This document shows positions 45,988-63,790 of a DNA stretch of 64,000 bases, piece by piece. The notes under the pieces are model-generated. The model made no database searches, was not told the DNA's origin, and was given only the letters and a program-made list of their open reading frames with translations. The DNA is from a phage, in NCBI GenBank assembly GCA_025829515.1, contig GCA_025829515.1_4865.1, one strand, 5' to 3'. Made by a program: the position numbers and the translations under genes. The first letter of the stretch is position 1. Every line of letters begins with the position of its first letter.

Positions 45988-46009
45988 TGCAGGTTGCTCC
46001 AGTATATTT

Positions 46010-46897: not shown

Positions 46898-46919
46898 TTA
46901 ATACTCCGAACGTTTTCTG

Positions 46920-47126
46920 TTATCGATTCCCCGCTCCACGGCTACAGCTTCCGCTGCAGGACCAGCTACACCCACCATTACAGTTATAGTGAGAAAGCGG
47001 TAAGCCAGCCAGGTTATTTGTGGTCGACACGGTGCCCTGGTTAGCGATATAGTTGTTTGCCTGTGCGGTTGTAATGTAACCTTCTGCCGTAACGAGACGG
47101 TTTCGAATAGTCTTGAGACTGATCAC
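46920..47126 (-). CDS. Cys-rich peptide 3 (68 aa): shared leader plus one C-X3-C cluster
   Basis: GTG start after GGAGG; leader MISLKTIRNRL...NN.AG; core CNGGCSWSCSGSCS. Confidence 0.6.
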   Translation of the reverse strand: MISLKTIRNRLVTAEGYITTAQANNYIANQGTVSTTNNLAGLPLSHYNCNGGCSWSCSGSCSRGAGNR

Positions 47127-47141
47127 ATAAGCCTCCGTCAG

Positions 47142-47546: not shown

Positions 47547-47556
47547 TTAATCCCCC

Positions 47557-47949
47557 TTAGCGACCTGAACAGCCGCCGGAGCAGGCCCCGGAACAACTGG
47601 AAGAACATGAGCCACCGCAACCACCAGTGCAGTTACCGGTACAGCTACTACTGCAACCACCAGAACAACCAGAGCAACCAGAACAGTTACCGCCACACGT
47701 CGAAGAACAGCTACCGATGCAAGAAGCAGAACAGCTTCCTGAACAGCTCGAACAACCGTGAGAACAGCCATTCGAACACGTCCAAGAACATGTCCCGCCG
47801 CAATCTAGCTGTGCTTTCGTCCAACCCCCAAATCGGTCTGCCGCATTATGGGCTTTAGAGGCCACTTGCGCGTCGATGCGGGGGCCTGTCGCCATGTTAG
47901 CTTCGACTATCTGGACGCGGTTTCTGACGTCTTTAATAGATATCGCCAT
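47557..47949 (-). CDS. Cys-rich peptide 1 (130 aa): leader plus (C-X3)n core with 21 Cys
   Basis: AAGGAA SD; leader MAISIKDVRNRV...HNAADRFGGWTKAQLDCGGTCS; core CSWTCSNGCSHGCSSCSGSCSASC... Confidence 0.65.
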   Translation of the reverse strand: MAISIKDVRNRVQIVEANMATGPRIDAQVASKAHNAADRFGGWTKAQLDCGGTCSWTCSNGCSHGCSSCSGSCSASCIGSCSSTCGGNCSGCSGCSGGCSSSCTGNCTGGCGGSCSSSCSGACSGGCSGR

Positions 47950-47969
47950 TACGCTTCCTTAAAAAGTAG

Positions 47970-48005
47970 AACGAGCGGACTATGTCCATAAACATAGTCC
48001 GGCTC
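47970..48005 (-). promoter_or_regulatory. intercistronic stem-loop between the fibre-like gene and the first Cys-rich peptide gene
   Basis: about 12-bp near-perfect stem GAGCCGGACTATG...CATAGTCCGCTC followed by a short T-rich stretch, then SD and ATG. Confidence 0.5.
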
Positions 48006-48014
48006 GTAAACAAA

Positions 48015-49217
48015 TTACTTAGTACCCGCTTCAGCTTGAACATCGTCGCGCGTGGTGAGGTTGTTGTTGACGTGAACAGCAGCCTGCACAACACCTCCAT
48101 ACTGTTTATGGAGGTAATTCGGGTGTGGGTTATCCGCAGCCGCATGGTTCGCCAGATTCTGGTTTGCCTGCGAAATTGCGTTGGTGTTGTTTATAACCTG
48201 AGTTTTAAGACTGTTGATTTGTCCTTGCAGGTTATCAATTTGCTGTTGGAAGTCCTTGCCCTGATTCTCAAGATCCGTGACGCGCTGATTTGTTTCATTC
48301 AGTGCAGACTGCAGATCGTTAACCATCTTCTGTAATTGCAACACCAGAGAATTAAGGTTAGCTAATGCTAACGACATTTTCTGGTAATTTTGAGCAACCA
48401 CATTAAGCTGGTCGTTCCACGCGGCTAACGAAGCCACAATTGCATCGATGCGTTTCCCCAACGCCGTGTCTGCTGCTCTTAAGTCGCCGATATCGTTGAT
48501 AGTGGCGTCAATGGCAGTCTGTACACTTTGAATCAGGGCACGAATCTCCGTCTCCGTCAGGCCATTAACCTGATGAATGTCGAGATTGTGTACGTTACCT
48601 TCGGCGTTGATGTGTGTATTTAAGGCGTCGAGGAAGTCGTTTCTCAGACCGTCCAGAATACCTTTAATTTCTTCCAGCTGTACTGCAGAGCCGGAGTTAA
48701 TCGCATCTTTAATCCCCGCGAGTACGGTAATGATATACTCAAAACCGTAGATATCGCCAAGGTCTTTATACGTCGGGGCGGACGGGAACGTATCGGGTAC
48801 GTTTCGAAGATCCTTGAAGTCCACCACACGGTCTTCAATTTTCAACGACGCAATCGCTTGTCGGATACCTTCGACGTTCGCGGACTGAAAACCACCAACG
48901 ACTTGCGCAGAGACTTCGATATCAGTAGGAATGGCCGAGTTAGTTACCACCACACCCATGACCACTTCGCGGTTCTTGGTCATTTTCTGATATGCAGTAT
49001 GTGCAAAAATCAGTTCGTAGTCTGTGCCGCGTTTGTACGGGTAGACACCTGGTTTATTCGCAGCTGCCAAGCGGAAGGTATCCGCGTAGAAAGCTCCGTC
49101 AGGAAAAGCAAAAGCCCGGTTAACTTTACCAGAACCTAACGTAATACGCCGTGTAACGGCGTTCGACGTTAATGTCCCGGTAAGGTCGAGCGGGTACTGA
49201 TGAATGATTTCGGCCAT
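48015..49217 (-). CDS. tail-fibre-associated coiled-coil protein
   Basis: start trimmed to ATG at 49217 (AGGAG SD); N-terminal domain shared with the three large fibre proteins; long heptad-rich C-terminal half. Confidence 0.6.
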   Translation of the reverse strand: MAEIIHQYPLDLTGTLTSNAVTRRITLGSGKVNRAFAFPDGAFYADTFRLAAANKPGVYPYKRGTDYELIFAHTAYQKMTKNREVVMGVVVTNSAIPTDIEVSAQVVGGFQSANVEGIRQAIASLKIEDRVVDFKDLRNVPDTFPSAPTYKDLGDIYGFEYIITVLAGIKDAINSGSAVQLEEIKGILDGLRNDFLDALNTHINAEGNVHNLDIHQVNGLTETEIRALIQSVQTAIDATINDIGDLRAADTALGKRIDAIVASLAAWNDQLNVVAQNYQKMSLALANLNSLVLQLQKMVNDLQSALNETNQRVTDLENQGKDFQQQIDNLQGQINSLKTQVINNTNAISQANQNLANHAAADNPHPNYLHKQYGGVVQAAVHVNNNLTTRDDVQAEAGTK

Positions 49218-49264
49218 TGCCAAACTCCTTTGATTGGGGCTTCCTTGCCCCATAGCGCTATCTG

Positions 49265-52200
49265 TTAGGTACGGAACATAAGATTGACCTGGATAATATC
49301 AGGCTGTTGACGTCCTCTCTCGTTCACCCAATCGTGCGCAATCGTTAACGTAAGATCATCGCCATCCCACGCCACGATCGGTGGTGGGAATAAACCCTGA
49401 GCGCCCGTGGTAACAACCGGGATTGCACCCGTCACATTCGTAAACGTGTAGCTACGACTGTTCAGAACAACTGGTGTGCCGTTGGTCTCTCCCGGCTGTG
49501 GTAAGATTTGAATCTTACTATCCGAAAGATCGGTGGTGATTGGTAGACCCCCAGCGTCCGTGAAAAGCCAAGAGCAAATATGCTGGTTAGCTGTTTCGAG
49601 CGCTGAAGAACTTACCGCCGCGACAAATGTAAAGGTGCACGGCACGCCTGCTGGCAGAGAGTGCTGTTTGTGGTGCACGGTATGTGGTGACGGCAATAAC
49701 ACTTCTGGATTTTCATCAATGTTAACATCCGTACCTTCCGCCTCGACGTTGTAGAAAAAGCCATCCACCGCCTCCCATGGGGCAACGTGAACATTAAAGG
49801 TCGTTTCTACTCCCGGTGTACCTGGGACGACGAATTTACTTTGCACCACCACCATCAAGTTCGTTGAGGTCGGTGAGAAAGCGGGCGTTGGAATACCTAC
49901 CCACTCCATGCCCAACGATGTCGCTTCACTGTTCTCATCGGCCGTTACCGTCGCAATTGTTGTAGGATGTTTCCAAAACGCCCCCGACTTGTTTGCCTGA
50001 GTAAACGCCGGCAAAGTTTTCAAGCCTTCGAAACGTTTGGACACCATCGCTTTACCGCGACGCTGTGCGTCAGATACGGTATAAAGCAACTGACTATCCA
50101 GATAGCCTTTCGTAGCATCGATCGACAAAGGACCCATCGCTTCTTTACGCAATGGTGCCAGTCTGCCCGTTGCTGCATCCCTTCCCACCTCCACATCATG
50201 CTTATTCTCAACCGCCGCATGTTCCAACAGTTGTTTCACCGCCCCTAATCGCTTAGCATGTTCGACGTTAGTCTCGACGACTCGCGACGAGCCCGTTTTA
50301 ACATACCCGATATAGAGTTCCGTTTCAGTGTCTGGATGTTGAATCACGTCCATTACGTACTTCGGTGTACCATTTTCTACCTTGGCGTGCAGGTAGAATG
50401 TCCGGTTCTGATGGTTTGTTGGAAATGCTGCGCTGAGGTCAATATACCACGTAGGCAGTTTATAAGTGCTCGAGCCGAAACGCAGGTTAACTTCCTCAGT
50501 CACATATACCAGCCAACCTTCGGCTGTTTCCACACCAGCAATGACAACCGATTCAGTCGGGCCACTAAAATTAGGAGCCGCGACAAAATCACTCGACGAC
50601 ATTGCGATACCACCACAATAGACGTAGTCGAGAGATGAGTTGTGTAGCATCACCTGATCACGATGAGCCAGATAAGCTGGGCTGACTGGGGTGTGGGATG
50701 GTGCCATACGTCCAATGCCGTGTGGAGCAGAAGAACGCGTCCAGGTACCGTTAGACAGCGTAAGACCAACACCGTAGTTAAGCGCACCCAAGTCGCCAAT
50801 TTGGCGCAAGGTTAACGTGTGTGGAAGATACAACCCGAACTGAGTACCATCTACTGACACCAGTGTAGGTTGTCCCGGCCGGCGTGTTTTTCCTCCCGTT
50901 ATCTCGCCCAACGTAGCATAACTCAAGCCATAGTCGAGGTTGTTATAGAAGTCAAACAGTGCCAATATCGCTGCGGGGAATGTTACCTGCCCGTTGCTGA
51001 TCGTTGGTTTCAGTGTAAAGTAGTAGATATCCAACACATTAACATTGTTCACAGTACGCATACATGCTACTTGTGCTAACGTGAGCGGTGTGGCCGTACC
51101 AATGCCGATGAACCAAATGGAGAACAGTGCCTTTCCGGCGTTATTTGCGGCAAGGATAAATTCCGAAGCATAACCATTCGCAGCGCCAGCCGGTGCACCG
51201 TCGATGATCATCTGCTTCATCTTATCCCATTCGGCTTGTGACAGCGTCAACCGATCGGCATGAATCGTGAAAGTGCCAGAAACGTTGTGGTAAGGGAATG
51301 TTTCTGGTCCTGTGCAATACCAGCCGTTTAACTCTGTACCAGGCGACGCCGGTGTAACAATGTGGCACATCTGCGACAGATTCTCGTACGTGGTAGAATC
51401 TACTACACGACGATTGTTAGTTGGGCCATACCCCGCCTTACCTGAGTAAGTGGTGTTCGGATCAAACTCAACTTCAATTGCCAAACGGGTACGCGGCTGT
51501 GACAACCAGATAAGTCTGGAATTCGCTCCCAGAGTCAGCGGATACGCCATACCTAGCTCGTAGATAGAACCACGACCTTGGTTTAACATTACCGCACTAA
51601 AACTTCTGGCAGTGAAGTTGTAGTCGCACGACAGGTACTCGTACCAACTCACACCGTCGTCTAACGTTGTAATCGTGACATAAGGCATTAGGTCGCGATC
51701 GTTTGCATGTCCTTGCGAAACGATATACTTGTCTTGCGATGTTGCAAAGGTTCGGTTATTAGCTTGACCTTCGCCCCACTTCCGGCTCGGAATCCCAATC
51801 TCAGCGCCACCGTTATAACGAACCGTGGTAAGATCGGCCACGATAGGGAATCGATCGGCACCTTCCAGCGTTACCGTCATTGAACCGCAATCAACAACAA
51901 AGCTTGACACCCATTGTTTAAAGTTAATAGTTTGCCCTGTAGTAGAAGCAAACCAGACTGTTGGCGTTAAACCAACACGAAAGTTCAGCCCATCCACAGC
52001 AATCGCGTGATTACATTCCGGACCATGGACGAAATTTCGCGCACTATTCCACTTCGCCGATGCGTCTGCGTAGATTTGTGTTACTGGCGCTACCAACACA
52101 TCTGTATCAGAACGTTTCTGACCCTGACGCAAGTAGATATTATCTCCCGACGTTAACATCCCACCTGTTAACACATCCGCCACAAACGTGTTGCTACCAC

Positions 52201-54448
52201 CCAGATTAAGTTCGTTGAGTGCGATGCTACGCATACTCACGAAATAGTCACCGGAGGTAAGCACAGTACGGAGCAGATAAACCCGCTCGTTGCAAACGAT
52301 CAAATCGTTTGTTGATGGATCAGCAACCCATGGAGCGGTTGTAATCACACCGGCCGCGTTACCATTTCGGTAATCGCCCAACTGAACTTTAACAACACGA
52401 TGATGTTTTGCATGGTCAATGGTTCCGTCAAAGATGACCAGGTAGTACGCACCGTCACTGCCTAAGCAGATCATTGCATCTGTACCGGTAATCACAATAG
52501 CAACCAGATTCACCCCAGGATACGCCGACATTCCAGCGGGGTGATAACGTACGGACGTCTGCTGCATATTTTCCAGCGTATTGCTTGGCGACACATCAGC
52601 ATAGGCGTAATAGATAGCCCAGTCACCTGGTGGATTCCCGTTAGAACCGTTACGGAGCGAGTAAACCTTACCAGACTCGTAACGCGCCAAACCTTTCTGC
52701 CAGGTTTGGTTTTTGGTATACCCTTCGTAGTTCCCCTGGACAGGTATAGGCAAGAAGTTATTGTTGCCGTACGATGATCCGCCGACAGTCCATGCGGGCA
52801 ACAGCGTAGCAATCTTGTCATTCAGTGTGTCAATCTTTTGTTCAAGCAAGAAGCCCTGACGCGAAGTGACCATCTTATCCGAGGTAGTGTCGATTGCATC
52901 CCACAGTTTAGCCAAACCTGTAACAGACGTGGATGCGTACGGCACGTTATCGAGATCTGCAATGGTGTGGGTGTGCGTTGTAAGCGCTTTGCCTGATAGC
53001 ACGGTGCGCAACGCATTAGTAACCGGTTTCTCCAGCGGCCCGGTATTGTTCATCTTCTCAATACCGAAATCTGCCGCGGTTAAGGTCAGATGCATCTGCC
53101 CGTTTGAATCTAATACAAACCCTTTACCATTGACTGTATACGTGTCGTCCACATATCCGTCGAGTTTGTTCTTCAAGTCAGTAACAGCTTTTTGGGAAAT
53201 CGCTGTGGACGCCGCAGCGGACGCCGAAAGGTTAGTAATCGCAAACAAACCCTGCACAGTTGTGGTTGCTGCAGGCAGCTCCGCATTCATGTAAACTTTG
53301 TTTGTTTCTTTACCAGAGCCGTAAATCTTCAACGTGTCGCTGGACTTGAAGTAGGCGTTTGCTGGAAGTATCTTCACCGAGGTCAAGTACATCTTAACCA
53401 TATCCGGTGTAACGAGATACACGCTGTTATACACAGGTGCAAGCACACCTGCATCATAAGCGCCCCACTTGTCACCTGCTTTACCCGAGTGAACCCAAAG
53501 CGTGTTCAGACCAGCACTGAACTCCGTAGCGATACCCGGTTCGTTGTTATCCTGGTCAGCTTTTAATACCAGCGGTTTTGTCGAGGTGATAATGAACTTC
53601 TCACCCTTCATGCTGATAACGTGACCAGACGTTGTTTGGAACGTAATCGCGTCGTTATTCAGAACACGCATACGGCCCAGTAAATCGCCCAGGGTATTAT
53701 CCAGAAGCATGTCAACGTGTTTCTGTTGGATGCCACTGGTAGACATTAACGTCACTAACTCTGCCAGTGTACGTCCAAACGCTTTAGTCGCATCCACGGC
53801 CTTACCGAGCACAGGGAGTGCGCCAATGTCACCGCAGGTGTAACCATGTGCATTTTTAATCAGGTGGTGTTGATACATTTCGTCATCAAACACCTGTTTA
53901 CCGTTCTGATAAATCAAATCGGTAACTTCGGCAAATGCCTCATCCAGTTCGTGGGCGCGCTCTAAAATGCCCAGACGGATATCTTCCAACGCCTTTACGA
54001 TTTCATCGCGAAGAATCGCTTCTTCGAGATCTTTTGGCGGGTCGATTGGCGAGATAATCGGTGGATATTTCATCAGCTCAGACCAATCGCAGTTGCGCGG
54101 GTCTTTCATATCCGTCTTAACCAGATACTTGCCGATTTCAGAAGCAGGGATGCGATACTGTCGACCAACCGACAACAACTCGTATTCTACCTCTGTGGCG
54201 TTCAGCAGCATTATGCTGCCGTATATTGCATCGTTCTCAGCCTCGGCTAATTCCTGGAAGTAATGTCCTAAGAAATAATCAAGACCTTCTATTAACTTGC
54301 GTTTGGTTCCGGTTGTTTTATCGGTAACGGTTAACGTTAACCCGATGCGATAGAACGGTGCTTCGACGGGAATGACCGTCGAATAACGGTTCGGGTAAGT
54401 AGCGGTACTGAGGGTACCGTTAAACTGCGCCGCATCTTCTCTCGGCAT
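49265..54448 (-). CDS. tail fibre protein (about 1727 aa)
   Basis: start trimmed to ATG at 54448 (AGGAG SD); T4-like fibre shaft repeats such as TTVQGLFAITNL...AISQKAVTDL. Confidence 0.7.
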   Translation of the reverse strand: MPREDAAQFNGTLSTATYPNRYSTVIPVEAPFYRIGLTLTVTDKTTGTKRKLIEGLDYFLGHYFQELAEAENDAIYGSIMLLNATEVEYELLSVGRQYRIPASEIGKYLVKTDMKDPRNCDWSELMKYPPIISPIDPPKDLEEAILRDEIVKALEDIRLGILERAHELDEAFAEVTDLIYQNGKQVFDDEMYQHHLIKNAHGYTCGDIGALPVLGKAVDATKAFGRTLAELVTLMSTSGIQQKHVDMLLDNTLGDLLGRMRVLNNDAITFQTTSGHVISMKGEKFIITSTKPLVLKADQDNNEPGIATEFSAGLNTLWVHSGKAGDKWGAYDAGVLAPVYNSVYLVTPDMVKMYLTSVKILPANAYFKSSDTLKIYGSGKETNKVYMNAELPAATTTVQGLFAITNLSASAAASTAISQKAVTDLKNKLDGYVDDTYTVNGKGFVLDSNGQMHLTLTAADFGIEKMNNTGPLEKPVTNALRTVLSGKALTTHTHTIADLDNVPYASTSVTGLAKLWDAIDTTSDKMVTSRQGFLLEQKIDTLNDKIATLLPAWTVGGSSYGNNNFLPIPVQGNYEGYTKNQTWQKGLARYESGKVYSLRNGSNGNPPGDWAIYYAYADVSPSNTLENMQQTSVRYHPAGMSAYPGVNLVAIVITGTDAMICLGSDGAYYLVIFDGTIDHAKHHRVVKVQLGDYRNGNAAGVITTAPWVADPSTNDLIVCNERVYLLRTVLTSGDYFVSMRSIALNELNLGGSNTFVADVLTGGMLTSGDNIYLRQGQKRSDTDVLVAPVTQIYADASAKWNSARNFVHGPECNHAIAVDGLNFRVGLTPTVWFASTTGQTINFKQWVSSFVVDCGSMTVTLEGADRFPIVADLTTVRYNGGAEIGIPSRKWGEGQANNRTFATSQDKYIVSQGHANDRDLMPYVTITTLDDGVSWYEYLSCDYNFTARSFSAVMLNQGRGSIYELGMAYPLTLGANSRLIWLSQPRTRLAIEVEFDPNTTYSGKAGYGPTNNRRVVDSTTYENLSQMCHIVTPASPGTELNGWYCTGPETFPYHNVSGTFTIHADRLTLSQAEWDKMKQMIIDGAPAGAANGYASEFILAANNAGKALFSIWFIGIGTATPLTLAQVACMRTVNNVNVLDIYYFTLKPTISNGQVTFPAAILALFDFYNNLDYGLSYATLGEITGGKTRRPGQPTLVSVDGTQFGLYLPHTLTLRQIGDLGALNYGVGLTLSNGTWTRSSAPHGIGRMAPSHTPVSPAYLAHRDQVMLHNSSLDYVYCGGIAMSSSDFVAAPNFSGPTESVVIAGVETAEGWLVYVTEEVNLRFGSSTYKLPTWYIDLSAAFPTNHQNRTFYLHAKVENGTPKYVMDVIQHPDTETELYIGYVKTGSSRVVETNVEHAKRLGAVKQLLEHAAVENKHDVEVGRDAATGRLAPLRKEAMGPLSIDATKGYLDSQLLYTVSDAQRRGKAMVSKRFEGLKTLPAFTQANKSGAFWKHPTTIATVTADENSEATSLGMEWVGIPTPAFSPTSTNLMVVVQSKFVVPGTPGVETTFNVHVAPWEAVDGFFYNVEAEGTDVNIDENPEVLLPSPHTVHHKQHSLPAGVPCTFTFVAAVSSSALETANQHICSWLFTDAGGLPITTDLSDSKIQILPQPGETNGTPVVLNSRSYTFTNVTGAIPVVTTGAQGLFPPPIVAWDGDDLTLTIAHDWVNERGRQQPDIIQVNLMFRT

Positions 54449-54493
54449 TGCAAACACTCCTAATCTGTAATAAAACGGAGACCGCCCTCCCAA

Positions 54494-54543
54494 TAACGGA
54501 AGGGCGGTTTACCTACGGACTACCCGCCCGTAGGCAGTCCGTC
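54494..54543 (-). promoter_or_regulatory. structured intergenic region between fibre genes
   Basis: two adjacent GC-rich hairpins (ccgccctcc...ggaagggcgg; cctacgg...ccgtagg). Confidence 0.4.
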
Positions 54544-57500
54544 CTAAGAGGCCCACTCACCCGAGTTGTTGCCTTCGTTTCTACGTTCAGTATCCAACGT
54601 TTGTAAAATCCAATCCCATGTCCTGGTGGGGATGTGGAATGGATTACGCTTCTCAATGAGAATCGTCTCGCCACCCGTGCGAAGTTCCACCGGTGTCGTT
54701 TCAGTAATCACGAACATCGGATTACCACTACTGCCCACGCCATTAATAGTGAACTTCGCTTGCAGCGGCGGCACAGAACCTTCCGGAGGCACGAACACGA
54801 TGTGAATTGGCTGCATCGGTTTCGTGCGGGCAAGTGTCCCAGATATCTGAACAGCTGTTGTCGATGCACTGAAAGGTATAACATTACCCGGAATTTTCTC
54901 ACTACCCACGATGATATATCCAGGGTAGTTAGAGAGCATTGTCCCATTTACCGACACAAAACGCTCATTTTGAGTTGGGCGATAAGCCCGCATAAAGCCG
55001 TACTTCCATTCACCACCGTTAGACGTATAGTCTGCAGGAGCCGACTCAAGTAGCGGAGCACCACGTTTCTGCAGCCCTTTGTAAAACGGCGCTGGGAGTT
55101 TACCGTTCGGTGCAAGTTCCGGATAACCCTCACTTGCAGCAGACATCGTGATGTATTCCGTAACCGGGTTATCGACGTTATCTCCAAAGTTCGCGAACGC
55201 GACGGTTGATATCGACATCTCCTCATGCCCAGAAGACTGGCTGTCCGGAGAACGCTCAATATACGACTCAAATAGCGAGCGTAGATAATGGAAACGATTT
55301 AAATCTACTTCTGTTGTGGAAGGGTCCATCAAACCGTGGTTGATAGTGACACCTTCACCAGTTTCGAGGCCAGTAACACTAATCGATAAAGCGCCGCCTT
55401 TAAAATAATCAATCGCGTCAAACGGAATGTCGTATTCTATCTCACGAACAGTCGCCGAAGCCTGCCCACCTATCTTACTAATCGACGATATTCGCAGTAT
55501 CTGCGTATCAACAATATAGCGATAACGAATAAGCCAGCGCGAACCAATGGCTGCGAACTCGCTAGCGATTGAAACCGGGAGATAGTCTAAACAGTCAGGC
55601 GACTGAACATCCACGCTCTTGATTACACGAGGAGCATCAACCAGCGTATTAGTAACGCTGGATTGTGTGCTGGCAATTCTTCCGGTTGGTTTATCGTACG
55701 GCGCGGCAATAAAGCCACAATTTAAACTGGTCTTGGAGTTACTCCACCGCAGGACTCTGGTTTTACCTTTCTCATCAGCAGAAGGGGCCATGAAGTTTAA
55801 TGAAACTTCGACGTCCGAGGTTTTTGGGACTTCAGGATAATCAGTGTCGATTACCACCGAACCCTCGAATGTCGCCATTCCGTTTTCTTTCGGGTTGCTT
55901 GGTGTAAACCAGCAATACGGGGACGCGTTTTCAGTAGAAACAACCGCCGCAAGAAGAATCCTGAGCGAGGTGGCACTTACGAATTTATAATCAAATAACC
56001 CACGGTCTAAACGAACGAGGTTATCCCCAGAAACAGACGGGTTAGTTGGATACGCGTACAGCCATTGTTTAGGTAACGGATCAACCTTATTCAACGGCAG
56101 CATTTTCGGGTTATCCGTCAATGACCAGTCGGTGTTACTCACCCCGTGTGCCAGACGTGTTTCGAAGTGCCGTTTAAGTTCGGACGCCATGCCAAAATCA
56201 AACGTCGTTTCAAACTCGTAAGTCGTGCCTGCAACCAATCCCGCGTCAGGGACATCGATGTGTCCGATATAGCCGCGTTCCAAGTTAATACCTTCCGTGT
56301 CCACAATAGGTTCGGCGCGCGAATATAACGCATCGGTTATCATGTTCACATAGAGGTAATGCCTTAAACCGTTCGGCGTCTTAACAAACTCCTGCAGGCG
56401 GGCAACTTTAGTGTTTTTATCCGAGGCCCCAACCGCAAAGTCACCGTCGTAAACTGTGAAACGAATTGCGGCTGCTTTAGCGCTATCGTTACACTCGGCA
56501 CGGAATGCTAAGCAATGTTGCTTCCACCCCTTCTTGACAGTCGCCTCCAGATACCCCGCTTCTGTAATACCCGCACCGATAATTTCACCGTCCAGATAAA
56601 CAGAAACAGCACCACCGCCACGAACCCAAATCCGCAGCTTACCAGAGTCGCAACGAACCCATGTTTTCGCCAAGAGGTTAACGACCGACAAATCACCCAT
56701 TCCGGTTGTCGTTAAACCAATCTGCGCACCGTAGTTCGTTTCCGGGACGGCAACCTCAAACCCACTAAAATCAATACCGGCACCGGTATTGATTACCGCG
56801 TTCTGCCACGTTCTTTCCATACGGTTATCTGGAGAGAACCACTGGAACATCGGCGTGGTTTGCAGGTCTATCGAACCAGATACCGTCCCCTCTTTACGTG
56901 CACCATTTAACAGATAGAAATAATTCAAATCCGTTACGGCGAGTGTGGTACGTGTAGATCCCACAGTCCAAGTCTTGCCGCGCACCGCGGCAAAATCGGT
57001 CACGGAGTCCTCTTTCGCGTTTGCTAGCGCAGCTGCAACTACGTCTAAACGTTTTGACAAATCGTTCAGAACGTTTGGGGTAACGCCGCGATTATCCGAC
57101 AAGCCATTTAGGTTGGTAGAATATCGAGCGATACCGGGCACTGTTTGAGAAGCCGTTGGGATCTGTAAATCGGCGAAGTTGTGATGGTGGCCTTTATCAC
57201 TAAGACCAGTAACTGCTTCTGCCAACGCATCAGAAAGTGGTTTATCGACGTCAGCTGTGTTATCAGCCAAGTCCAGACCCAAATCCTTTTTCGTTAGCGT
57301 TCGGCTACCAGTGTCCATCGGCTGGTTATTCAGCAGCGTTGTCTTCCTGACGTACGAAGACAGATCACCCTCGTACGGTAAGAGCGAAGCTGGGGTGGCT
57401 GCTTGTCCCTTGACTACATCGCTCGGCTTATCAGTCAGCGTCACAACGCCGGGTTCAGAGGTCGTCGCGGGTTTGGCTGTGACCTTCCCGGTGACGGGAT

Positions 57501-58674
57501 CGGCTTTTGACCCTTTACCCGTGAAAGTAATGCCGTTCACCCCGCTAATGTACAGTTTGTTGTCATCCGGGTCAACGGTACCACCGCCGGTACCAGGGTC
57601 TTGTTGATAGCCCATGAGAGCAGTTGTGGTCAGTAACGTCGTACCATTAAGCGTCAGCTTATCCATCCCCAAGGCACTGCCAGTCGACTCAATACGTAAT
57701 GTATTGATGCCTGCTTTCCACTCCATAAACCGGACGGTTCCAGTAGTGTCGGCATACCCACACGCCAACACAACAGAGCCATTAGATTTAAGAGTGAATG
57801 CCTCAGCAGAGAACACAATTTCGGATTCACCAGCAGGAGAACGGAACAGGGCACGAGTACCGGATATCGTCGCATTAAACACCCCTCTGGATTCTTTCGA
57901 TACCCATTTAGAAATGTACTTGTCGATATCCGATTGTTGCAGACCCAGTGCACGGACCTCGCTGGTTAACTGACGCAACGTCTTTCCATACGCCAGGAAA
58001 GTATCTGGCGTTTTCAGGTTGACAGGATGCGCACCGGCCTGCGCCGCGGTAGTCCCATGAGGGTTAGTCGACGCAATGTGTCCGGGGTAGTTAAATGTGG
58101 CGATTTCAGTTCCTAAGCCCAAAACCGCATCTTTCAGCTCAGTAAGCTTTTCACGAATCTGCTCGTTGGCCGCCCCGGCATCTAACTCCACATCATGCAC
58201 TGCAGAGGCAACATACTTTTTATTCAGCATGTCTGACCAAGCTACCGCTGCAGGGGTGGCTGGGTACAGGGAAGGTCGATTACCTAAAAGCAGCCAATCT
58301 GCAGCCGTTGGATTGTTGAGTGCCTTAATTAGCTCATCCAACATCTCAATCAAACCACTGTAAAACGTACCCCCGAGCATCTGGCCTTCAAAGACCACCG
58401 CACCACGCAGTTTAGGGTTAATAAGATGCACCCCGCAAAACACCGGGGTCGTCACCGAGTCGTCCAACGGTGTTAAAGCATACTCCAGCTCATAGTCCGT
58501 CCCGCGGGTAAGCGGTATGGACGAGCCGGCGAGCCTTACCACCAATCCTTCGAAAAACGGGCGATGATCTAGCATCACCACCCGATCGTTAGGATTGTCG
58601 GAGTCGATGATACGTTCCTCGATGAAGTGACACTCGGGATTCACACCCCGAGGATCGTAAGGATACGTTTTCAT
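54544..58674 (-). CDS. tail fibre protein (1376 aa)
   Basis: AAGGAG SD; shaft repeats QTVPGIARYST, GVTPNVLNDL, ATPASLLPYEG resemble the T4 gp34/gp12 repeat. Confidence 0.75.
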   Translation of the reverse strand: MKTYPYDPRGVNPECHFIEERIIDSDNPNDRVVMLDHRPFFEGLVVRLAGSSIPLTRGTDYELEYALTPLDDSVTTPVFCGVHLINPKLRGAVVFEGQMLGGTFYSGLIEMLDELIKALNNPTAADWLLLGNRPSLYPATPAAVAWSDMLNKKYVASAVHDVELDAGAANEQIREKLTELKDAVLGLGTEIATFNYPGHIASTNPHGTTAAQAGAHPVNLKTPDTFLAYGKTLRQLTSEVRALGLQQSDIDKYISKWVSKESRGVFNATISGTRALFRSPAGESEIVFSAEAFTLKSNGSVVLACGYADTTGTVRFMEWKAGINTLRIESTGSALGMDKLTLNGTTLLTTTALMGYQQDPGTGGGTVDPDDNKLYISGVNGITFTGKGSKADPVTGKVTAKPATTSEPGVVTLTDKPSDVVKGQAATPASLLPYEGDLSSYVRKTTLLNNQPMDTGSRTLTKKDLGLDLADNTADVDKPLSDALAEAVTGLSDKGHHHNFADLQIPTASQTVPGIARYSTNLNGLSDNRGVTPNVLNDLSKRLDVVAAALANAKEDSVTDFAAVRGKTWTVGSTRTTLAVTDLNYFYLLNGARKEGTVSGSIDLQTTPMFQWFSPDNRMERTWQNAVINTGAGIDFSGFEVAVPETNYGAQIGLTTTGMGDLSVVNLLAKTWVRCDSGKLRIWVRGGGAVSVYLDGEIIGAGITEAGYLEATVKKGWKQHCLAFRAECNDSAKAAAIRFTVYDGDFAVGASDKNTKVARLQEFVKTPNGLRHYLYVNMITDALYSRAEPIVDTEGINLERGYIGHIDVPDAGLVAGTTYEFETTFDFGMASELKRHFETRLAHGVSNTDWSLTDNPKMLPLNKVDPLPKQWLYAYPTNPSVSGDNLVRLDRGLFDYKFVSATSLRILLAAVVSTENASPYCWFTPSNPKENGMATFEGSVVIDTDYPEVPKTSDVEVSLNFMAPSADEKGKTRVLRWSNSKTSLNCGFIAAPYDKPTGRIASTQSSVTNTLVDAPRVIKSVDVQSPDCLDYLPVSIASEFAAIGSRWLIRYRYIVDTQILRISSISKIGGQASATVREIEYDIPFDAIDYFKGGALSISVTGLETGEGVTINHGLMDPSTTEVDLNRFHYLRSLFESYIERSPDSQSSGHEEMSISTVAFANFGDNVDNPVTEYITMSAASEGYPELAPNGKLPAPFYKGLQKRGAPLLESAPADYTSNGGEWKYGFMRAYRPTQNERFVSVNGTMLSNYPGYIIVGSEKIPGNVIPFSASTTAVQISGTLARTKPMQPIHIVFVPPEGSVPPLQAKFTINGVGSSGNPMFVITETTPVELRTGGETILIEKRNPFHIPTRTWDWILQTLDTERRNEGNNSGEWAS

Positions 58675-58686
58675 TCAAAAATCTCC

Positions 58687-61600
58687 TTAATCACGAATAA
58701 TAAGTGTTCGAGCTGACGTGTTTTTCGGATTGAACGTCATCATCTTGGATGGGTGTGCCGCCAGTGGAATTTTACCTGCATCCACTGGTCGGAACGAACT
58801 GTATGAATAGTTGCACATCGCGCTGTTCATCTCATTAATCGTTGAACCTGCATCCACCACGCCAGTAAAGAATCTTGCGCGGTTTAAGCCGGAATAGTTA
58901 ATCGCATAGTCAAGGAACGTGGCGTAATAACGATTCTTTGTCGGCATCGTGTTCAGGTTAGCGTAAGTCAAACGCGCTTCTGTGTCGGAACTAAACAAAC
59001 CACCCACGCCGTGATAAATCGGCGTACTCGGATCGGTAATCAGTTTCGTCAAGTCGATATAGTCAGGACGGAGACGGGTAGACAAATCCTCAGTCCACGA
59101 CTCGCCGGTCGACTGCAAGGTGTATTTCAGCGTCTTTGTTGTCGCGGTTAGCGTCAGCTCAAAGTTGATCGTTTTAGAATCGATGTTAATCGTTCCCACG
59201 AACGAAATACCGTCCGCTGTTCGCGCGTGGCTGAAACGCACCGATGGATTAAGTGCCGTCCAGTCATGGCCGGAACCAGTAACGCCGTTCAAGCCAATAA
59301 CAACCTGTGCAGCACGTCCGTAGTTAACCGCGATTCCCGCATACGTGCTCACGCCGCCTGGAGTGGTAATACGCCCTGCGGTGCGTGCGACGAGTACAGA
59401 AATACGGTGCATGAACGTGGCCGAGTGATGGCAACACCCAATTACCGTTTCTAGCACACTGTCCGCTGTTGCGGTTAAAGGTGTCCACGTTGCGGTAATG
59501 CCGTTATTCTGGAACATCGGGAATGTGTTGTGGACAAAACGATAGTCGGTTACAGATAAACTGGTTGTTTTAAACGTCCATTTATCAGCAGCCGGATCGT
59601 AGTCCGCTTTCAACATAGGCGTATAGCTGCTAGCCTGCGCGTAACGCCAATCGGCATCTATACGTTTTGTACCTGGTGCACCCGTGGACCACACAGGCCC
59701 GCCCGTACCGTAAGTAAATCCGAAATCAGCTTGCGTCATACCCCGACGAATATGGGCGTTATCATCCTCGATATGCTCGCCTAATTCACGGAACTCACCT
59801 AAACGCGTCACGTTGCGGATTTCTACAAAAACCACACCGGTTTCACTGGTGATGATGGAACCTATTTTGGTCATCGTCTCAGTTTCTGCCGTGTTTGGAT
59901 TTTCGTAGATAATGTACTTGCCGTCATCGCCCGCCGCGTCAACATACACGCCAAACTCAGCATCTTCGTGCGTCGCTGGGAATAGCTCCGCCAAGTTAAA
60001 TGTGGAGAGAGGTACTTTGTACTCGCGACCAACGAAATAATCGTTCGCTTTAATAGTAACCATCCAGTCGGTGTAAGTGATGCCGTTTTCAATGGTATCC
60101 GTGCCGGGTAAACCGTAACGAATAATGTTGATTGAAGCACCAGAGTCGACTGTCTTCGCAACCTTCTCTATCTCTGTGATAGCGTCCGCCTGTCGGATGA
60201 CCTCACCGCCGTCTAATGCCAGCGTGGCATCGTCAACCGCGGTGCCGAACTGTACTAAACCGAACTCCGTCGTTGTTGCACGCTTAATCCCGAGCGCAGC
60301 AGGAGCGTGTGTGTGACCGACGACTGCATACTTGTCCAGCTCAGCTCGTTGGAGCGGGGAAATCGGCAATTGCACGTCTGGGATGTTCTGTACGTTCGAT
60401 AAGCCGAAGTTAGTTTTATCGATGTAAATAGAACTCGTCAGTGGCATGTCGTTGATGTACGATTTAACGGCAACCAACTTGCCCGTAAACTGCTGATCCA
60501 ATTTCTTGATGAGTGCCGGCGTTGCGGCCAAGTCCTCACGATCACCGAATTCAGTAGCCAACAAACGGACAGCCATCAGGCCAAGGTCGTCGGACTCCGG
60601 TGGAACAAAAGTACAAATGAACGGAACAGACTGAATACCGTTGCCGTTAATGGTTACAGTAGCTGTGGATGTTCCGTAAAACAGTCCATCACCACCTGAC
60701 TCGTTACCCGGCAGGTACGGTCCGACCGTAGTAGGGTCCAATAGTTTCTTACCGTTGAACTCCAATCCACGGGAATCCGGATAAAGGATGAGTTGGTTAG
60801 CCCCACCTTGCCATGTAATCGGGTTATTCCCGGCGTTAACGGTTTGCGAATCGCGGCCAATAAAACGGATAACCCTCGGGTCAACCGTGAATTGTGCACC
60901 CACGCCTTCAGACTCATCGGTACCCACTGCTGACGTTATCGAAGTCAGGCCAGGCTTCATACCGAAAGTGCCGTTGATAGACTGTGCAGCCGCCGGTAAA
61001 CGTAAAAGCTTATTCGCCAGCGTTGACAGTTTCGGCAACAGATTGTTAACGTAATCTGTCAGCTGCGGTTGCGTTTTTCCGTATACCAGTGTCGCGTCCG
61101 AAGCAATACCGTTATTCTCCAAAGCACGGATTGCGCCCCACGAATCGCGATGTGGGTTATCCTTGCGCGGCACGTGCGTATGTGCTGGTGCATCACGGTA
61201 CAGCTTATCGACAATCTGGTGATATTTTACCAGCAGCTGGTACACGTCGTTGTTAACGTCAGGTGCCGGTGCGCCTGGTAATGAACGAATCTGGACGTAA
61301 TCGTTCTCACCTGCCCACCAGTTTAGGTTGACGCCCGATTTAAACTTCAACCATTTTGCGACATCAGTTTTCTGATACCCTGGTGCAAATTCGCTCGGTG
61401 GGTTGTCAACGTTAAAGCTGTAGTTAACGGTTTGCTTGCTTGTTTTAACGGTAATGTCGTAAACGCCGTTACCTTCGCGTCTGACCACGCTAAGCTCAAT
61501 ATCACCCGCCAACTCGGTATCGGTCAGGCCAGTCGTCAACGTATAGCTGTAATTAGACGAACCAGAACCAATCGCCGTCGTTAAGGTAAGATAAATCGCG

Positions 61601-62400
61601 CGTTGCTTCAACTGAAGACGCAGGATACTTGTCCCACCGTTTGCGTAACAGAGCATCCAATCGATCAACTCGCCTGGGTTCAACGTTGTTTCCGGTGGAA
61701 TGCTCGGTAAACGGTATTTTGCCGCTAACGAATACGCACCGAACGTCGTGTTCTGGTAAGATAACGAATAACGACGACGCGACGCGTTATACGTGTAGCC
61801 GCCAGTACCGTCGTACGTCGCATACTGCTCGGATGTGATAAGCGTGACACCGGCGCGATATTGAAGGTCTAACGTGTTACGAGCAATCGGGTCAACGCGA
61901 CTGATCGCTTCACCGAGCTTAGCACCAACCGCAACAATGGCTTCCATCAACTCGGATTCGCCACGCCAGTTTTCCCAGTCGAACTTAATATCGACCGGTG
62001 GGAAATATAAATCCCCAATGACGTTATCCCATTGGCAGTCTACGGGATAGCGATCTTTATTCGCTTCTCGTTCTGCGGCGATCATTTCTGCAGTGGCTTC
62101 ACCGATGCCAATTGCGTGGTAATCGAGTGTAAAGCCACTCTGATATTTCGGGTTGGTAATCCACACACCGCCGTGACAAACATGGCCAGTGCGTGCCATG
62201 CCCGTAACGTATGCATGGGTGATGACGTAATCATCACCTAATGTTAATTTCTTGCCGCCACTCTTGACCACCAGGGATGTGGTATAAAAGGGGGCGTGTG
62301 CGGGGAACAGCATCCGGTACTTAGTACCGATCGGCGTTACCGCTTCACCGGTCTGCATATTCCCCGGTTCTTGATAGTGCGGGTCAGGGACGACAGCCAT
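58687..62400 (-). CDS. large virion structural protein, tail fibre or baseplate-associated (1237 aa)
   Basis: AAAGGAG SD; first gene of the minus-strand block; shares the N-terminal APFY...G.DY motif with the other fibre proteins. Confidence 0.65.
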   Translation of the reverse strand: MAVVPDPHYQEPGNMQTGEAVTPIGTKYRMLFPAHAPFYTTSLVVKSGGKKLTLGDDYVITHAYVTGMARTGHVCHGGVWITNPKYQSGFTLDYHAIGIGEATAEMIAAEREANKDRYPVDCQWDNVIGDLYFPPVDIKFDWENWRGESELMEAIVAVGAKLGEAISRVDPIARNTLDLQYRAGVTLITSEQYATYDGTGGYTYNASRRRYSLSYQNTTFGAYSLAAKYRLPSIPPETTLNPGELIDWMLCYANGGTSILRLQLKQRAIYLTLTTAIGSGSSNYSYTLTTGLTDTELAGDIELSVVRREGNGVYDITVKTSKQTVNYSFNVDNPPSEFAPGYQKTDVAKWLKFKSGVNLNWWAGENDYVQIRSLPGAPAPDVNNDVYQLLVKYHQIVDKLYRDAPAHTHVPRKDNPHRDSWGAIRALENNGIASDATLVYGKTQPQLTDYVNNLLPKLSTLANKLLRLPAAAQSINGTFGMKPGLTSITSAVGTDESEGVGAQFTVDPRVIRFIGRDSQTVNAGNNPITWQGGANQLILYPDSRGLEFNGKKLLDPTTVGPYLPGNESGGDGLFYGTSTATVTINGNGIQSVPFICTFVPPESDDLGLMAVRLLATEFGDREDLAATPALIKKLDQQFTGKLVAVKSYINDMPLTSSIYIDKTNFGLSNVQNIPDVQLPISPLQRAELDKYAVVGHTHAPAALGIKRATTTEFGLVQFGTAVDDATLALDGGEVIRQADAITEIEKVAKTVDSGASINIIRYGLPGTDTIENGITYTDWMVTIKANDYFVGREYKVPLSTFNLAELFPATHEDAEFGVYVDAAGDDGKYIIYENPNTAETETMTKIGSIITSETGVVFVEIRNVTRLGEFRELGEHIEDDNAHIRRGMTQADFGFTYGTGGPVWSTGAPGTKRIDADWRYAQASSYTPMLKADYDPAADKWTFKTTSLSVTDYRFVHNTFPMFQNNGITATWTPLTATADSVLETVIGCCHHSATFMHRISVLVARTAGRITTPGGVSTYAGIAVNYGRAAQVVIGLNGVTGSGHDWTALNPSVRFSHARTADGISFVGTINIDSKTINFELTLTATTKTLKYTLQSTGESWTEDLSTRLRPDYIDLTKLITDPSTPIYHGVGGLFSSDTEARLTYANLNTMPTKNRYYATFLDYAINYSGLNRARFFTGVVDAGSTINEMNSAMCNYSYSSFRPVDAGKIPLAAHPSKMMTFNPKNTSARTLIIRD

Positions 62401-62467
62401 TTTACACTCCTTTTCTCTGAGGGCGTCGAGTTCATACTATGACCCGAATCCTTAGAGGAAACAGCCA

Positions 62468-63730
62468 GTGACTACTGCTTATCAAGTGCGGGCCGACAGC
62501 GCTTTTGGCTTCTCTCGAGACACCCGAACTTGGGGAACCATCGATGTCACGCAGCCCTTAAATACCCTTTGTGCTAACTACCACTTTTTCGAAGTAGGAC
62601 TAGAAGCACTAGGTGCTGAATATACCTTCTATAGCCAGTATCACCTGGCTGATTTACAAAACCGTACGGACACGTTGCAAGATTGGTTAAACACCAAGTC
62701 AGGAATCGCGATTCCAACGCTTGGGAAGGGCCTACCGAAGCTCGAATTCGTTGAGGCACATTACCAGTCTATTAATGCAGATGTGCCCGTAGAAACGCAC
62801 CTGTGCCCTCCTGGGTACCACTACACCCAGGACTTCAATCCTGATGATGCACACGACGTTGTTGTAGTCTGCGACGATGAGTGGAAAGAGAAATACCGTA
62901 CTGGAGTGCTGTACAACATCAACGGCCAGTGGGTACCTCACCAATCTGACCCAGTGGGCGTTCGCTTAACCGGCGCTGGTAATATCGTGCGGCGTGCCAA
63001 TACGCCAGACATTGGCTGTCTGGTGATGGCAAATATCGGTAAAGTAAAGACCTACCCCATATCCGGTTTAACGATGAACAAACTCGATACTACGCGAGAT
63101 TACTATTCTTCGTTAATGCTGACCTTACCCGATTCCATTACAGGGAAAACCGTTGGGTTCGTCATCGGAGGTATTCTGCATTGGTTGCCGCCGCAGGGCT
63201 ATTTCAGCGACCGTGCGATTATGCTGAGTCTGCCAAACCTTAGCGTGGCGAAGATTGTATTGGAAACCCGTCGCTATTACGATTGGGACGCCATCGGTGT
63301 AGGTGATTTAAGTACGCCTACGTCCGTTCAACGTATTCGTAACTCAGAAACGTTAAAAGCGTTGCTGACGCACGAATCCTCGTTTATCTTTACGATAGAC
63401 AACCCGTATCTCGAAAAAGAGATTCACGGAATAAGCCACAACGCTATCTGGGGCCGGTTCTATTTAAAAGACCCGACTGACCCAGATGGGAAGAAGACGC
63501 TAGGTCCTATCTTTAACCGTATTGGTAAATGTGTAGGGTACTGGCCGACCTGGGAAGAAGGGGAGTGGGTCTTTAATACCACATTCTTCGACCGGGAAAA
63601 CTTTTTGTTGGGGAACGCGCGTTGGTATAACCAGAATTTGGTAAACGACGCGCAGGCAATCGTCGGGCCTTTCGGGGCTTGGGGTAAGCCGTTTGTTGAA
63701 ATGCATCGCTACAAAGCAAGAAAAAAATAA
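62468..63730 (+). CDS. hypothetical protein (420 aa)
   Basis: GTG start; divergent from the fibre block; followed by terminator. Confidence 0.55.
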   Translation: MTTAYQVRADSAFGFSRDTRTWGTIDVTQPLNTLCANYHFFEVGLEALGAEYTFYSQYHLADLQNRTDTLQDWLNTKSGIAIPTLGKGLPKLEFVEAHYQSINADVPVETHLCPPGYHYTQDFNPDDAHDVVVVCDDEWKEKYRTGVLYNINGQWVPHQSDPVGVRLTGAGNIVRRANTPDIGCLVMANIGKVKTYPISGLTMNKLDTTRDYYSSLMLTLPDSITGKTVGFVIGGILHWLPPQGYFSDRAIMLSLPNLSVAKIVLETRRYYDWDAIGVGDLSTPTSVQRIRNSETLKALLTHESSFIFTIDNPYLEKEIHGISHNAIWGRFYLKDPTDPDGKKTLGPIFNRIGKCVGYWPTWEEGEWVFNTTFFDRENFLLGNARWYNQNLVNDAQAIVGPFGAWGKPFVEMHRYKARKK

Positions 63731-63780: not shown

Positions 63781-63790
63781 CGCAGGCCGA

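Follow-up and report, generated by a model that had tools for sequence, protein, structure and literature searches.

[quoted passage not shown] The set of proteins fitted into this attachment density comprises gp131, gp133, gp134 and gp135, modelled as three copies of gp131 plus gp133, gp134 and gp135, a hexamer obtained by rigid-body fitting of AlphaFold3 models into maps of 4.4-4.6 Å and presented by its authors as a candidate. For Salmonella phage SPN3US, gp168, gp169 and gp170 have been grouped as "Paralog family C" (Ali et al. 2017, PMC5694885; Weintraub et al. 2023, PMC10052503) and described as paralogous, low-abundance baseplate or tail-fibre candidates related to phiKZ gp131. Published SPN3US proteomics further found gp167-gp170, all four abundant, together with gp171 in wild-type virions, and almost none of these proteins in tailless particles, with gp167, gp168, gp169 and gp170 each classed as a tail protein by mass spectrometry (MS); gp168 is reported as "expected essential" and gp171 as an essential tail protein, and none of the SPN3US literature searched gives a host receptor. 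A set of paralogues sharing an anchor, as found here, is thus real but largely known, having already been described for SPN3US and phiKZ.

The window, i.e. the whole 64-kb stretch of DNA analysed, derives from a Seoulvirus jumbo phage, with DNA 97-99% identical to SPN3US and SPN3US-like phages. Four minus-strand genes in this window are homologues of SPN3US gp170, gp169, gp168 and gp167, their coordinates and starts agree with the SPN3US RefSeq annotation, and amino-acid identity to the SPN3US counterparts across the gp167-gp171 set is 95.8-100% (Table 1). For gp168, the ATG at 54448 is favoured as the start, since the TTG further upstream, at 54493, falls within a terminator-like hairpin that separates gp169 from gp168. 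Given that the four proteins are 95.8-98.4% identical to those of SPN3US, the published proteomics also answers whether all four are present in virions, a check proposed when the locus was first read from sequence.

Table 1. Features of the fibre locus, with window positions, strand and the evidence for each.
Feature	Position	Strand	Evidence
gp171, phiKZ gp130 homologue	62468..63730	+	SPN3US gp171 100% identical; full-length BLASTP to phiKZ gp130, E 3e-16
gp170 homologue, long fibre/baseplate protein	58687..62400	-	1237 aa; 97.7% aa identity to SPN3US gp170; full-length PHROG 7557 match
gp170, gp131-like N-terminal attachment domain, residues ~1-164	61909..62400	-	Family HMM E 1.4e-37; BLASTP to phiKZ gp131 residues 12-167, E 4e-9
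gp170, insertion of ~220 aa between N-domain and shared shaft, residues ~165-386	61243..61908	-	gp170 387-723 aligns to gp168 166-520
gp170, proximal shaft common to gp168 and gp169, residues 387-723	60232..61242	-	BLASTP E 5e-5 to gp168, 1e-4 to gp169; PHROG 7449 and 8078
gp169 homologue, long fibre/baseplate protein	54544..58674	-	1376 aa; 98.4% aa identity to SPN3US gp169; PHROG 8078
gp169, gp131-like N-domain and next helix, residues 3-207	58054..58668	-	Family HMM E 4.9e-43; BLASTP to phiKZ gp131, E 8e-7
gp169, residues 39-574, collinear with gp168 31-558	56953..58560	-	BLASTP E 5e-24, 23% identity, 563 columns
Terminator-like hairpin, 95-nt gap between gp169 and gp168	54481..54508	-	12-bp stem, 8 GC pairs, T-rich tail
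gp168 homologue, long fibre/baseplate protein	49265..54448	-	1727 aa; 95.8% aa identity to SPN3US gp168; PHROG 7449
gp168, gp131-like N-domain and helix, A-type, residues 9-202	53843..54424	-	Family HMM E 7.9e-38; BLASTP to phiKZ gp131, E 1e-8
gp167 homologue, short paralogue (N-domain and coiled-coil rod)	48015..49217	-	400 aa; 98% aa identity to SPN3US gp167; PHROG 2163, E 1e-108
gp167, gp131-like N-domain and helices, B-type, residues 1-211	48585..49217	-	Family HMM E 7e-64
gp167, coiled-coil rod, residues 222-360	48138..48554	-	Single long helix in AF2 model; unbroken heptad register; many coiled-coil Pfam matches

The sequence-only reading had proposed that these four proteins begin with a related segment, and this resemblance goes far beyond chance. 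All four N-termini matched PHROG 2163 (E 4e-14, 8e-23, 1e-87 and 1e-108), and a profile HMM derived from the N-terminal 215 aa of 149 representative database proteins matched exactly these four among all six-frame ORFs in the 64-kb window (E 7e-64, 3e-43, 3e-38 and 4e-38), with the matches beginning at residues 1-9 in each protein. Pairwise, the N-termini are only 13-25% identical, and three of the six BLASTP comparisons between them were individually non-significant, as might be expected if they were alike merely by chance or composition and shared no common function. However, the three significant pairs connect the four proteins as a chain (gp170-gp168, E 3e-4; gp168-gp169; gp169-gp167, E 5e-8), the alignment is significant by profile, and the domain aligns with the N-domain of phiKZ gp131, gp133, gp134 and gp135 (hhalign 99.3%, E 1.8e-20, 161 columns). 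The PHROG, window HMM and hhalign results together refute a chance resemblance, whose probability we consider negligible.

Residues of the motif initially noticed (the F of APFY, and G.DY) fall on near-invariant columns of this family. A beta-sandwich of ~110 residues makes up the domain, and downstream of it come a conserved W..L..P..FP linker, then one helix or two, and the H..NPH motif. The helix region and H..NPH motif are aligned in three of the four proteins, and in gp170 the motif is shifted by an insertion to residues ~400-429. Across 3,424 cluster representatives the domain was always found at residues ~1-200, in proteins ranging from 166 to 2164 aa, and it thus behaves as an N-terminal adaptor. 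This homologue set came from an exhaustive HMMER search, a word-indexed search with an 8-sequence profile having yielded just nine proteins, mostly fragments. PDB sequence searches with both N-domain profiles (entries to 8 April 2026, which do not include the phiKZ fibre models) gave no convincing solved-structure match, the lone hit being a short W..I..KP..FPP motif in "tail collar fibers gp4" (9d93, E 8e-5).

Individual comparisons point to the same phiKZ proteins. When applied to the phiKZ locus, the N-domain HMM matched exactly gp131, gp133, gp134 and gp135. By BLASTP, gp168, gp169 and gp170 matched gp131 (E 1e-8, 8e-7 and 4e-9, respectively) within its first ~170 residues only, and gp167 matched gp135 (E 1e-14), of which it is the nearest SPN3US relative. 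phiKZ ORF145, listed elsewhere as the homologue of gp168 (Table 4 in Thomas et al. 2016), was not retained as such, since BLASTP with a cut-off of E 0.01 linked no window protein to either gp145 or gp146, the matches at phiKZ being confined to gp131, gp133, gp134 and gp135. Gene order is also preserved: gp171 adjoins the four fibre genes and is divergently transcribed, and SPN3US, CR5, phiKZ, 201phi2-1, Aphrodite1, Ea35-70, Kp24 and RP12 each have two to four N-domain genes immediately next to the gp130 homologue and in divergent orientation to it. The gp130 homologue itself is present in 206 phage records.

The homology to the phiKZ N-domain, the cryo-EM placement of that domain under gp130, and the adjacent gp171 together support the common attachment domain that had initially been suggested. 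We consider it likely that gp167-gp170 are paralogous baseplate-fibre proteins, each opening with a gp131-like N-domain and anchored at the baseplate periphery under gp171. The N-domain and next helix would fix each protein at this position, under the gp130 homologue, and the remainder of the protein would point outward from the baseplate. In gp167 this remainder includes a coiled-coil rod of ~140 residues, and in gp168, gp169 and gp170 it consists of a common proximal shaft continued by a large divergent distal part that presumably binds the host. Homology, domain position, the conserved gene order at the gp130 homologue, and the coiled coil of gp167 were established in the present analysis; the literature supplies the assignment of the proteins to the SPN3US tail and the cryo-EM position of the homologous phiKZ domains.

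Beyond the N-domain, BLASTP identified a common homologous proximal region of ~350-500 aa in gp168, gp169 and gp170, preceded in gp170 by the insertion. In comparison to the CR5 orthologues, overall identity is 36-50% over the proximal ~400-600 residues (dropping to 20% across the insertion in gp170) and 16-25% in the distal parts beyond ~800 residues, a gradient expected of an anchor and shaft with a variable receptor-binding end. The distal parts did not resemble known structures at the sequence level: phmmer comparison of gp168, gp169 and gp170 to all PDB chains returned nothing at E 0.1 or better, and the C-terminal seven-bladed beta-propeller of phiKZ gp131 had no sequence match in these three proteins. 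For gp167, an AF2 model based on an 84-sequence alignment (pLDDT 81.7, vs. 62 with 7 sequences) includes a beta domain at residues 20-106 (pLDDT >90) and helices at residues 160-204. In the heptads of the downstream rod, hydrophobic residues occupy 80% of a positions and 75% of d positions.

The three long proteins had also been described as carrying T4-like shaft repeats, which our comparisons leave statistically unsupported. BLASTP of the long proteins against T4 gp34 gave a best E of 1.4, Pfam matches on these proteins (Phage_fiber_2, E 0.11; PTR, E 0.015) fell below curated cut-offs, and a profile derived from ten gp34 repeats reached 2.9 bits at best. A loose repeat regular expression found one copy per long protein, compared to 10 in gp34, and shuffled sequences gave as many; the ~40-aa gp34 repeat is thus not supported as a significant, repeated element of the long proteins.

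These results bear on how the four proteins may be arranged, for which the sequence-only reading had offered several distinct fibres or a single multi-segment fibre. The latter, with the four proteins placed end to end like T4 gp34-35-36-37, could draw on the loose T....G....AT-type motif found once in each long protein, which lines up with the gp34 repeat in the top-scoring, though non-significant, BLAST segments. There is, however, no significant likeness to T4 gp34 or to Pfam fibre repeats, and only the proximal segment of a serial fibre would need an anchor, yet the anchor is found at the extreme N-terminus of all four proteins. The N-termini of the phiKZ paralogues are, likewise, all four together at the attachment site. 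Since a common N-terminal anchor favours parallel docking rather than a serial T4-style fibre, this is the less likely of the two original options, and we regard it as highly improbable. The phiKZ precedent suggests a third possibility, in which paralogues would be mixed within one six-membered fibre base. SPN3US may build mixed fibre bases like phiKZ, with three gp167 and one each of gp168, gp169 and gp170 as a candidate composition, which we consider possible but somewhat less likely than not. The co-occurrence of two N-domain types in each of six other genomes and the greater abundance of gp167 relative to the long proteins are in its favour, and the candidate status of the phiKZ hexamer, the ambiguous N-domain type of gp169 and gp170, and the large differences in length and distal parts between the three long proteins are against it; these unlike lengths and distal parts, along with the ~220-aa insertion in gp170, would be awkward to accommodate in a heterotrimeric shaft.

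N-domains separate into an A-type and a B-type, cleanly so in leave-one-out tests, with at least one of each in all six other genomes. gp167 is of the B-type (119.9 bits with the B HMM vs. 71.6 with the A HMM) and gp168 of the A-type (69.9 bits with the A HMM vs. 35.3 with the B HMM). gp169 and gp170 were considered as A-type but are unassignable (76.7 vs. 69.4 bits and 55.9 vs. 52.1 bits, respectively). The presence of both types in every genome examined suggests that they are needed together, which runs counter to another arrangement, namely four independent homotrimeric fibres, each self-trimerising and using the common N-domain to fill its own or an equivalent baseplate socket, so that the phage would have several receptor specificities and no hetero-oligomer. 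Several points are consistent with separate fibres: the homotrimer is the usual form of a phage fibre, gp168, gp169 and gp170 have distal parts with no relationship in length and little in sequence, each of these three has a one-to-one CR5 orthologue, paralogue number ranges from 2 to 4 across genomes, and MS abundances lie within ~2.5-fold. In contrast, each attachment site in the phiKZ density accommodates six N-domains instead of three, together with a six-helix bundle, and gp167, consisting of a coiled coil with no distal domain, is unlikely to act as a receptor-binding fibre alone. On this evidence, independent homotrimers appear possible but somewhat doubtful. Abundance estimates are compatible with either arrangement: in two MS data sets, the per-kDa abundance of gp167 exceeds that of each long protein by a factor of 1.4-2.5, and spectral counts put the long proteins at about the level of the 12-copy portal. 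Such counts are a crude measure; the same calibration assigns ~4-5 copies to gp171, for which 12 or more are expected, and they are too coarse to tell 3:1:1:1 from 1:1:1:1. Returning to the mixed six-membered base, a broader version would be a conserved chimallivirus rule of three A-type and three B-type N-domains per docking site, with SPN3US mirroring phiKZ to form a single branched fibre that bears three distinct receptor-binding arms; we view this generalisation as unlikely.

Host range in SPN3US-like phages, a group under development against Salmonella, is likely determined by gp167-gp170. One conserved docking module under gp171 would show where distal receptor-binding parts can be exchanged with assembly undisturbed. 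To the existing literature our analysis makes modest additions, namely gp167 as a member of the family and counterpart of phiKZ gp133-135, two N-domain types that co-occur in every genome examined, and a mix of long and short paralogues inverted between SPN3US and phiKZ, which leads to a testable prediction of fibre stoichiometry.

Overall, the locus can be compared to several known systems. Paralog family C consists of the same genes as gp168-gp170 in the window (95.8-98.4% aa identity) but has three published members, gp167 being tabled among the tail proteins but assigned to no paralog family; based on its BLASTP match to gp169 and the common family HMM, gp167 can be counted as a fourth member, by virtue of its N-terminal ~210 residues alone. 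Likeness to T4 gp34 is limited to a loose T/S-x4-G-h-h-x-h-A-T motif, once per long protein, and to best (non-significant) BLAST segments landing on gp34 repeats, and T4 fibre proteins differ in having no common N-terminal anchor. Other systems compared were the N-terminal adaptor-binding domains of podophage fibres (T7 gp17, PDB 7boz/8e4g) and neck adaptor or head-completion proteins (8hqo_R). In 201phi2-1 (GenBank EU197055), gp216-gp220 are annotated paralogues, detected in the virion by MS, that adjoin the gp130 homologue gp215, and all four large paralogues match the N-domain part of PHROG 2163; they differ from the window set in combining, as in phiKZ, a single long protein with three short ones, and in including a 107-aa protein that lacks the N-domain. 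The likeness to phiKZ, with its "gp131-like N-terminal domain" and hetero-hexameric fibre base (PMC13250141; Sycheva et al. 2012), extends to a homologous N-domain, the same next helix and H..NPH motif, and four paralogues adjoining and divergent from a gp130 homologue. The two nevertheless differ in that a small gp132-like protein lacking the N-domain was not found in the window, and in that phiKZ combines one long protein (gp131, 771 aa) with three short ones of ~460 aa, whereas SPN3US combines three long proteins (1237-1727 aa) with a single short one (400 aa).

Across the 14.4-kb region encoding gp167–gp170, named after their SPN3US orthologues, the window shares 97.4–98.4% DNA identity with SPN3US-like Salmonella jumbo phages (genus Seoulvirus). 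Gene coordinates and lengths agree with the SPN3US RefSeq record NC_027402, and the start codons chosen in the sequence-only reading are those of the RefSeq annotation. Compared pair by pair, the four N-termini resemble each other weakly (13–25% identity), and by BLASTP they are connected only stepwise (gp170–gp168, E 3e-4; gp168–gp169, E 5e-24; gp169–gp167, E 5e-8). All four N-termini nonetheless matched PHROG 2163 (E 4e-14, 8e-23, 1e-87, and 1e-108), and an exhaustive HMMER search with a window N-terminus profile recovered 3,424 cluster representatives at E ≤ 0.001 (2,694 of them at E ≤ 1e-10), with the domain always at residues ~1–200 of proteins of 166–2164 aa. A family HMM was built from 149 representatives, each cut to its first 215 residues; of the ORFs in all six frames of the 64-kb window it matched exactly these four (E 7e-64, 3e-43, 3e-38, and 4e-38) and no other. 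The common N-terminal segment noticed from the sequence is thus real, and the motif by which it was recognized (F of APFY; G.DY) corresponds to nearly invariant family columns.

Profile–profile comparison related this N-domain to the N-termini of phiKZ gp131, gp133, gp134, and gp135 (99.3% probability, E 1.8e-20, 161 columns), and in the phiKZ locus the family HMM matched exactly these four proteins, with no match to gp132, gp145, or gp146. By BLASTP, gp170, gp169, and gp168 each matched phiKZ gp131 best, within its first ~170 residues (E 4e-9, 8e-7, and 1e-8, respectively), and gp167 matched phiKZ gp135 best (E 1e-14, residues 9–210). The neighboring gp171 is a full-length homologue of phiKZ gp130 (E 3e-16; homologues in 206 phage records), and its gene is divergent from the fibre genes, as that of phiKZ gp130 is from gp131–135. 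N-domain genes directly adjoin the gp130 homologue in eight genomes, numbering four in SPN3US, CR5, phiKZ, and 201phi2-1, three in Aphrodite1 and Ea35-70, and two in Kp24 and RP12. Together, the phiKZ homology and the position beside a gp130 homologue support the common attachment domain that had been proposed.

Features of the window and of related loci.
Feature	Sequence	Coordinates	Strand	Description
gp170	window	58687-62400	-	1237 aa; 97.7% protein identity to SPN3US gp170
gp169	window	54544-58674	-	1376 aa; 98.4% protein identity to SPN3US gp169
gp168	window	49265-54448	-	1727 aa; 95.8% protein identity to SPN3US gp168
gp167	window	48015-49217	-	400 aa; 98.0% protein identity to SPN3US gp167
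gp171	window	62468-63730	+	100% identical to SPN3US gp171
Terminator-like hairpin	window	54481-54508	-	12-bp stem, 8 GC pairs, T-rich tail; in 95-nt gp169-gp168 gap
Radical-SAM gene	window	43752-45080	-	Pfam PF04055, E 1e-14
Radical-SAM gene	window	45073-46023	-	Pfam PF04055, E 1e-15
phiKZ gp132	L012	10811-11143		extra protein without N-domain
201phi2-1 gp217	L013	10446-10769		extra protein without N-domain
Aphrodite1 gp152	L014	20291-22801		extra protein without N-domain
Ea35-70 gp020	L009	7199-10651		extra protein without N-domain

Several relatives encode beside the fibre genes an extra protein beginning at the helix/H..NPH segment (PHROG 2163 positions ~160–268); none of the phiKZ gp132 kind was found in the 64-kb window. 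A linker motif following the beta domain, W..I..KP..FPP..H.H (phiKZ N-terminus profile positions 116–164), matches ‘Tail collar fibers, gp4’ (PDB 9d93, E 8e-5) and seems to be a short motif in common with fibres of unrelated phages. Its counterpart in gp167 lies at residues ~128–160, and its histidines are lost in all four window proteins.

For gp167, AF2 modelling (84 aligned sequences, mean pLDDT 81.7) gave a beta domain at residues 20–106 (pLDDT > 90), a poorly defined linker holding a conserved D/W..L..P..FP motif, helices at residues 160–204, and one continuous helix at residues 222–360, the latter with an unbroken heptad register (hydrophobic residues at 80% of a and 75% of d positions). 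From this layout and register, gp167 is predicted to be an anchor domain plus a ~20 nm coiled-coil rod, without a distal domain. Foldseek against BFVD returned 56 viral models at E ≤ 0.001; among the best 50, all named ones were virion, tail-fibre, or ‘YomR’ proteins from jumbo phages or an uncultured myovirus, and most matches listed aligned over the first ~220–270 residues. Solved structures yielded no convincing fold match to this model.

Each of gp167–gp170 has its own CR5 orthologue, so the paralogues are old and specialized. The proximal parts are conserved between orthologues, with 36–50% identity along most of the N-terminal ~600 residues and a fall to 20% across the gp170 insertion, and the distal parts beyond ~800 residues are variable (16–25%), the usual pattern where an anchor and shaft carry a receptor-binding tip. 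Between the window and SPN3US, gp168 carries 72 amino-acid differences, of which ~24 fall within residues 689–804 (approximately 52037–52384), a possible host-range hot spot, and only 3 within the first 200 residues.

The hairpin between gp169 and gp168 may divide transcription of the four genes into two units or lessen read-through. A mechanical ORF list holds a longer, TTG-initiated gp168, but use of this start is unlikely because it falls within the strong hairpin. Across window positions 46800–64000, sigma-70-like promoter matches are depleted (6 vs. 18.4 ± 4.0 for shuffled sequence) and hairpins of terminator type enriched (33 vs. 18.4 ± 4.7), consistent with a phage transcribing with its own RNA polymerases; the whole 64-kb window contains no tRNA genes. 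A few genes separate the radical-SAM pair from the fibre genes upstream of it, and such a block likewise follows the fibre genes in Cronobacter phage CR5 and, with three genes, in Ralstonia phage RP12; this linkage is conserved.

The long proteins have a homologous proximal region in common: by BLASTP, gp169 residues 39–574 align with gp168 residues 31–558, and gp170 residues 387–723 with gp168 residues 166–520, past a ~220-aa insertion in gp170. A second common module (BLASTP E 2e-10) lies far from the N-terminus, at gp170 residues 740–883 (59752–60183) and gp168 residues 1282–1417 (50198–50605), the gp168 copy also matching PHROG 3573, the family of the N-domain-less Ea35-70 gp020. While the N-terminal part of the sequence-only reading stood, the T4-like shaft repeats it ascribed to the long proteins found no statistical support: the best BLASTP match to T4 gp34 had E 1.4, Pfam fibre-repeat models scored under their cut-offs, a profile of ten gp34 repeats gave ≤ 2.9 bits, and a loose repeat regex occurred once per long protein vs. 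ten times in gp34, a single copy being equalled by shuffled sequences 13–19% of the time. A serial, T4-like fibre is highly improbable.

Taken together, this analysis and published work show that gp167–gp170 are tail components with an N-terminal module in common, that the phiKZ homologues of this module occupy fibre sockets, and that the four genes adjoin the socket-protein gene. How they would assemble is suggested by a 2026 cryo-EM atlas of phiKZ, in which fibre-attachment sites lie beneath gp130, each fitted as a candidate hetero-hexamer (3 × gp131 + gp133 + gp134 + gp135), with twelve such fibres per baseplate (PMC13250141). A neighbor-joining tree (26 N-domains, eight genomes) and leave-one-out HMM scoring (margins 30–130 bits) divide N-domains into an A-type resembling gp131 and a B-type resembling gp133–135, with at least one of each in all six genomes outside the SPN3US lineage. 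In this scoring gp167 falls plainly with the B-type (120 vs. 72 bits) and gp168 with the A-type (70 vs. 35 bits); the scores of gp169 and gp170 are ambiguous. Normalized to mass, gp167 also exceeds the other three in two MS data sets, at 1.90 SC/kDa vs. 1.00–1.41 for the long proteins in 2017 (PMC5694885) and 6.7 vs. 2.7–3.8 PSM/kDa in 2023 (PMC10052503). On this measure the long proteins lie near the portal, which has 12 copies (3.9 PSM/kDa), but it is a crude guide to copy number: the same scale gives only 4–5 copies of gp171. These types and abundances fit a mirror image of the phiKZ model, in which each site would hold three gp167 and one each of gp168, gp169, and gp170. We tentatively favor such a mixed hexamer of N-domain paralogues at the SPN3US fibre base, at somewhat below an even chance. 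Separate homotrimeric fibres, one per paralogue, are only slightly less probable; the long proteins differ greatly in their distal parts, which agrees just as well with independent homotrimers. What lends itself to testing is the stoichiometry of the fibre base.

Such paralogues have been described before in phiKZ-like jumbo phages, and the finding is essentially known. In SPN3US, gp168, gp169, and gp170 make up the “Paralog family C” of Ali et al. (2017), described as candidate baseplate/tail-fibre proteins of low abundance with a relationship to phiKZ gp131, and missing from a tailless mutant (PMC5694885); Thomas et al. (2016) listed gp168 as an expected-essential baseplate/fibre protein and gp171, the homologue of phiKZ ORF130, as an essential tail protein (PMC5105663). 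Table 4 of the latter names phiKZ ORF145 as the gp168 homologue (the text there names gp131); BLASTP matches only gp131/133/134/135, with nothing at E ≤ 0.01 between window proteins and phiKZ gp145/146. The 2023 MS study again limits family C to gp168–170; in its Table S2, gp167 is assigned to “Tail”, its paralog-family entry is empty, and it has 277/269/334 PSMs in wild type vs. 0/3/2 in tailless particles (PMC10052503), and the 2017 table likewise lists it as tail without a paralog family (PMC5694885). In 201phi2-1, the GenBank record annotates gp216–220 as paralogues present in the virion. To this literature we make a small addition: on sequence homology through the N-terminal ~210 residues, gp167 is a fourth family member, corresponding in SPN3US to the short paralogues of phiKZ.
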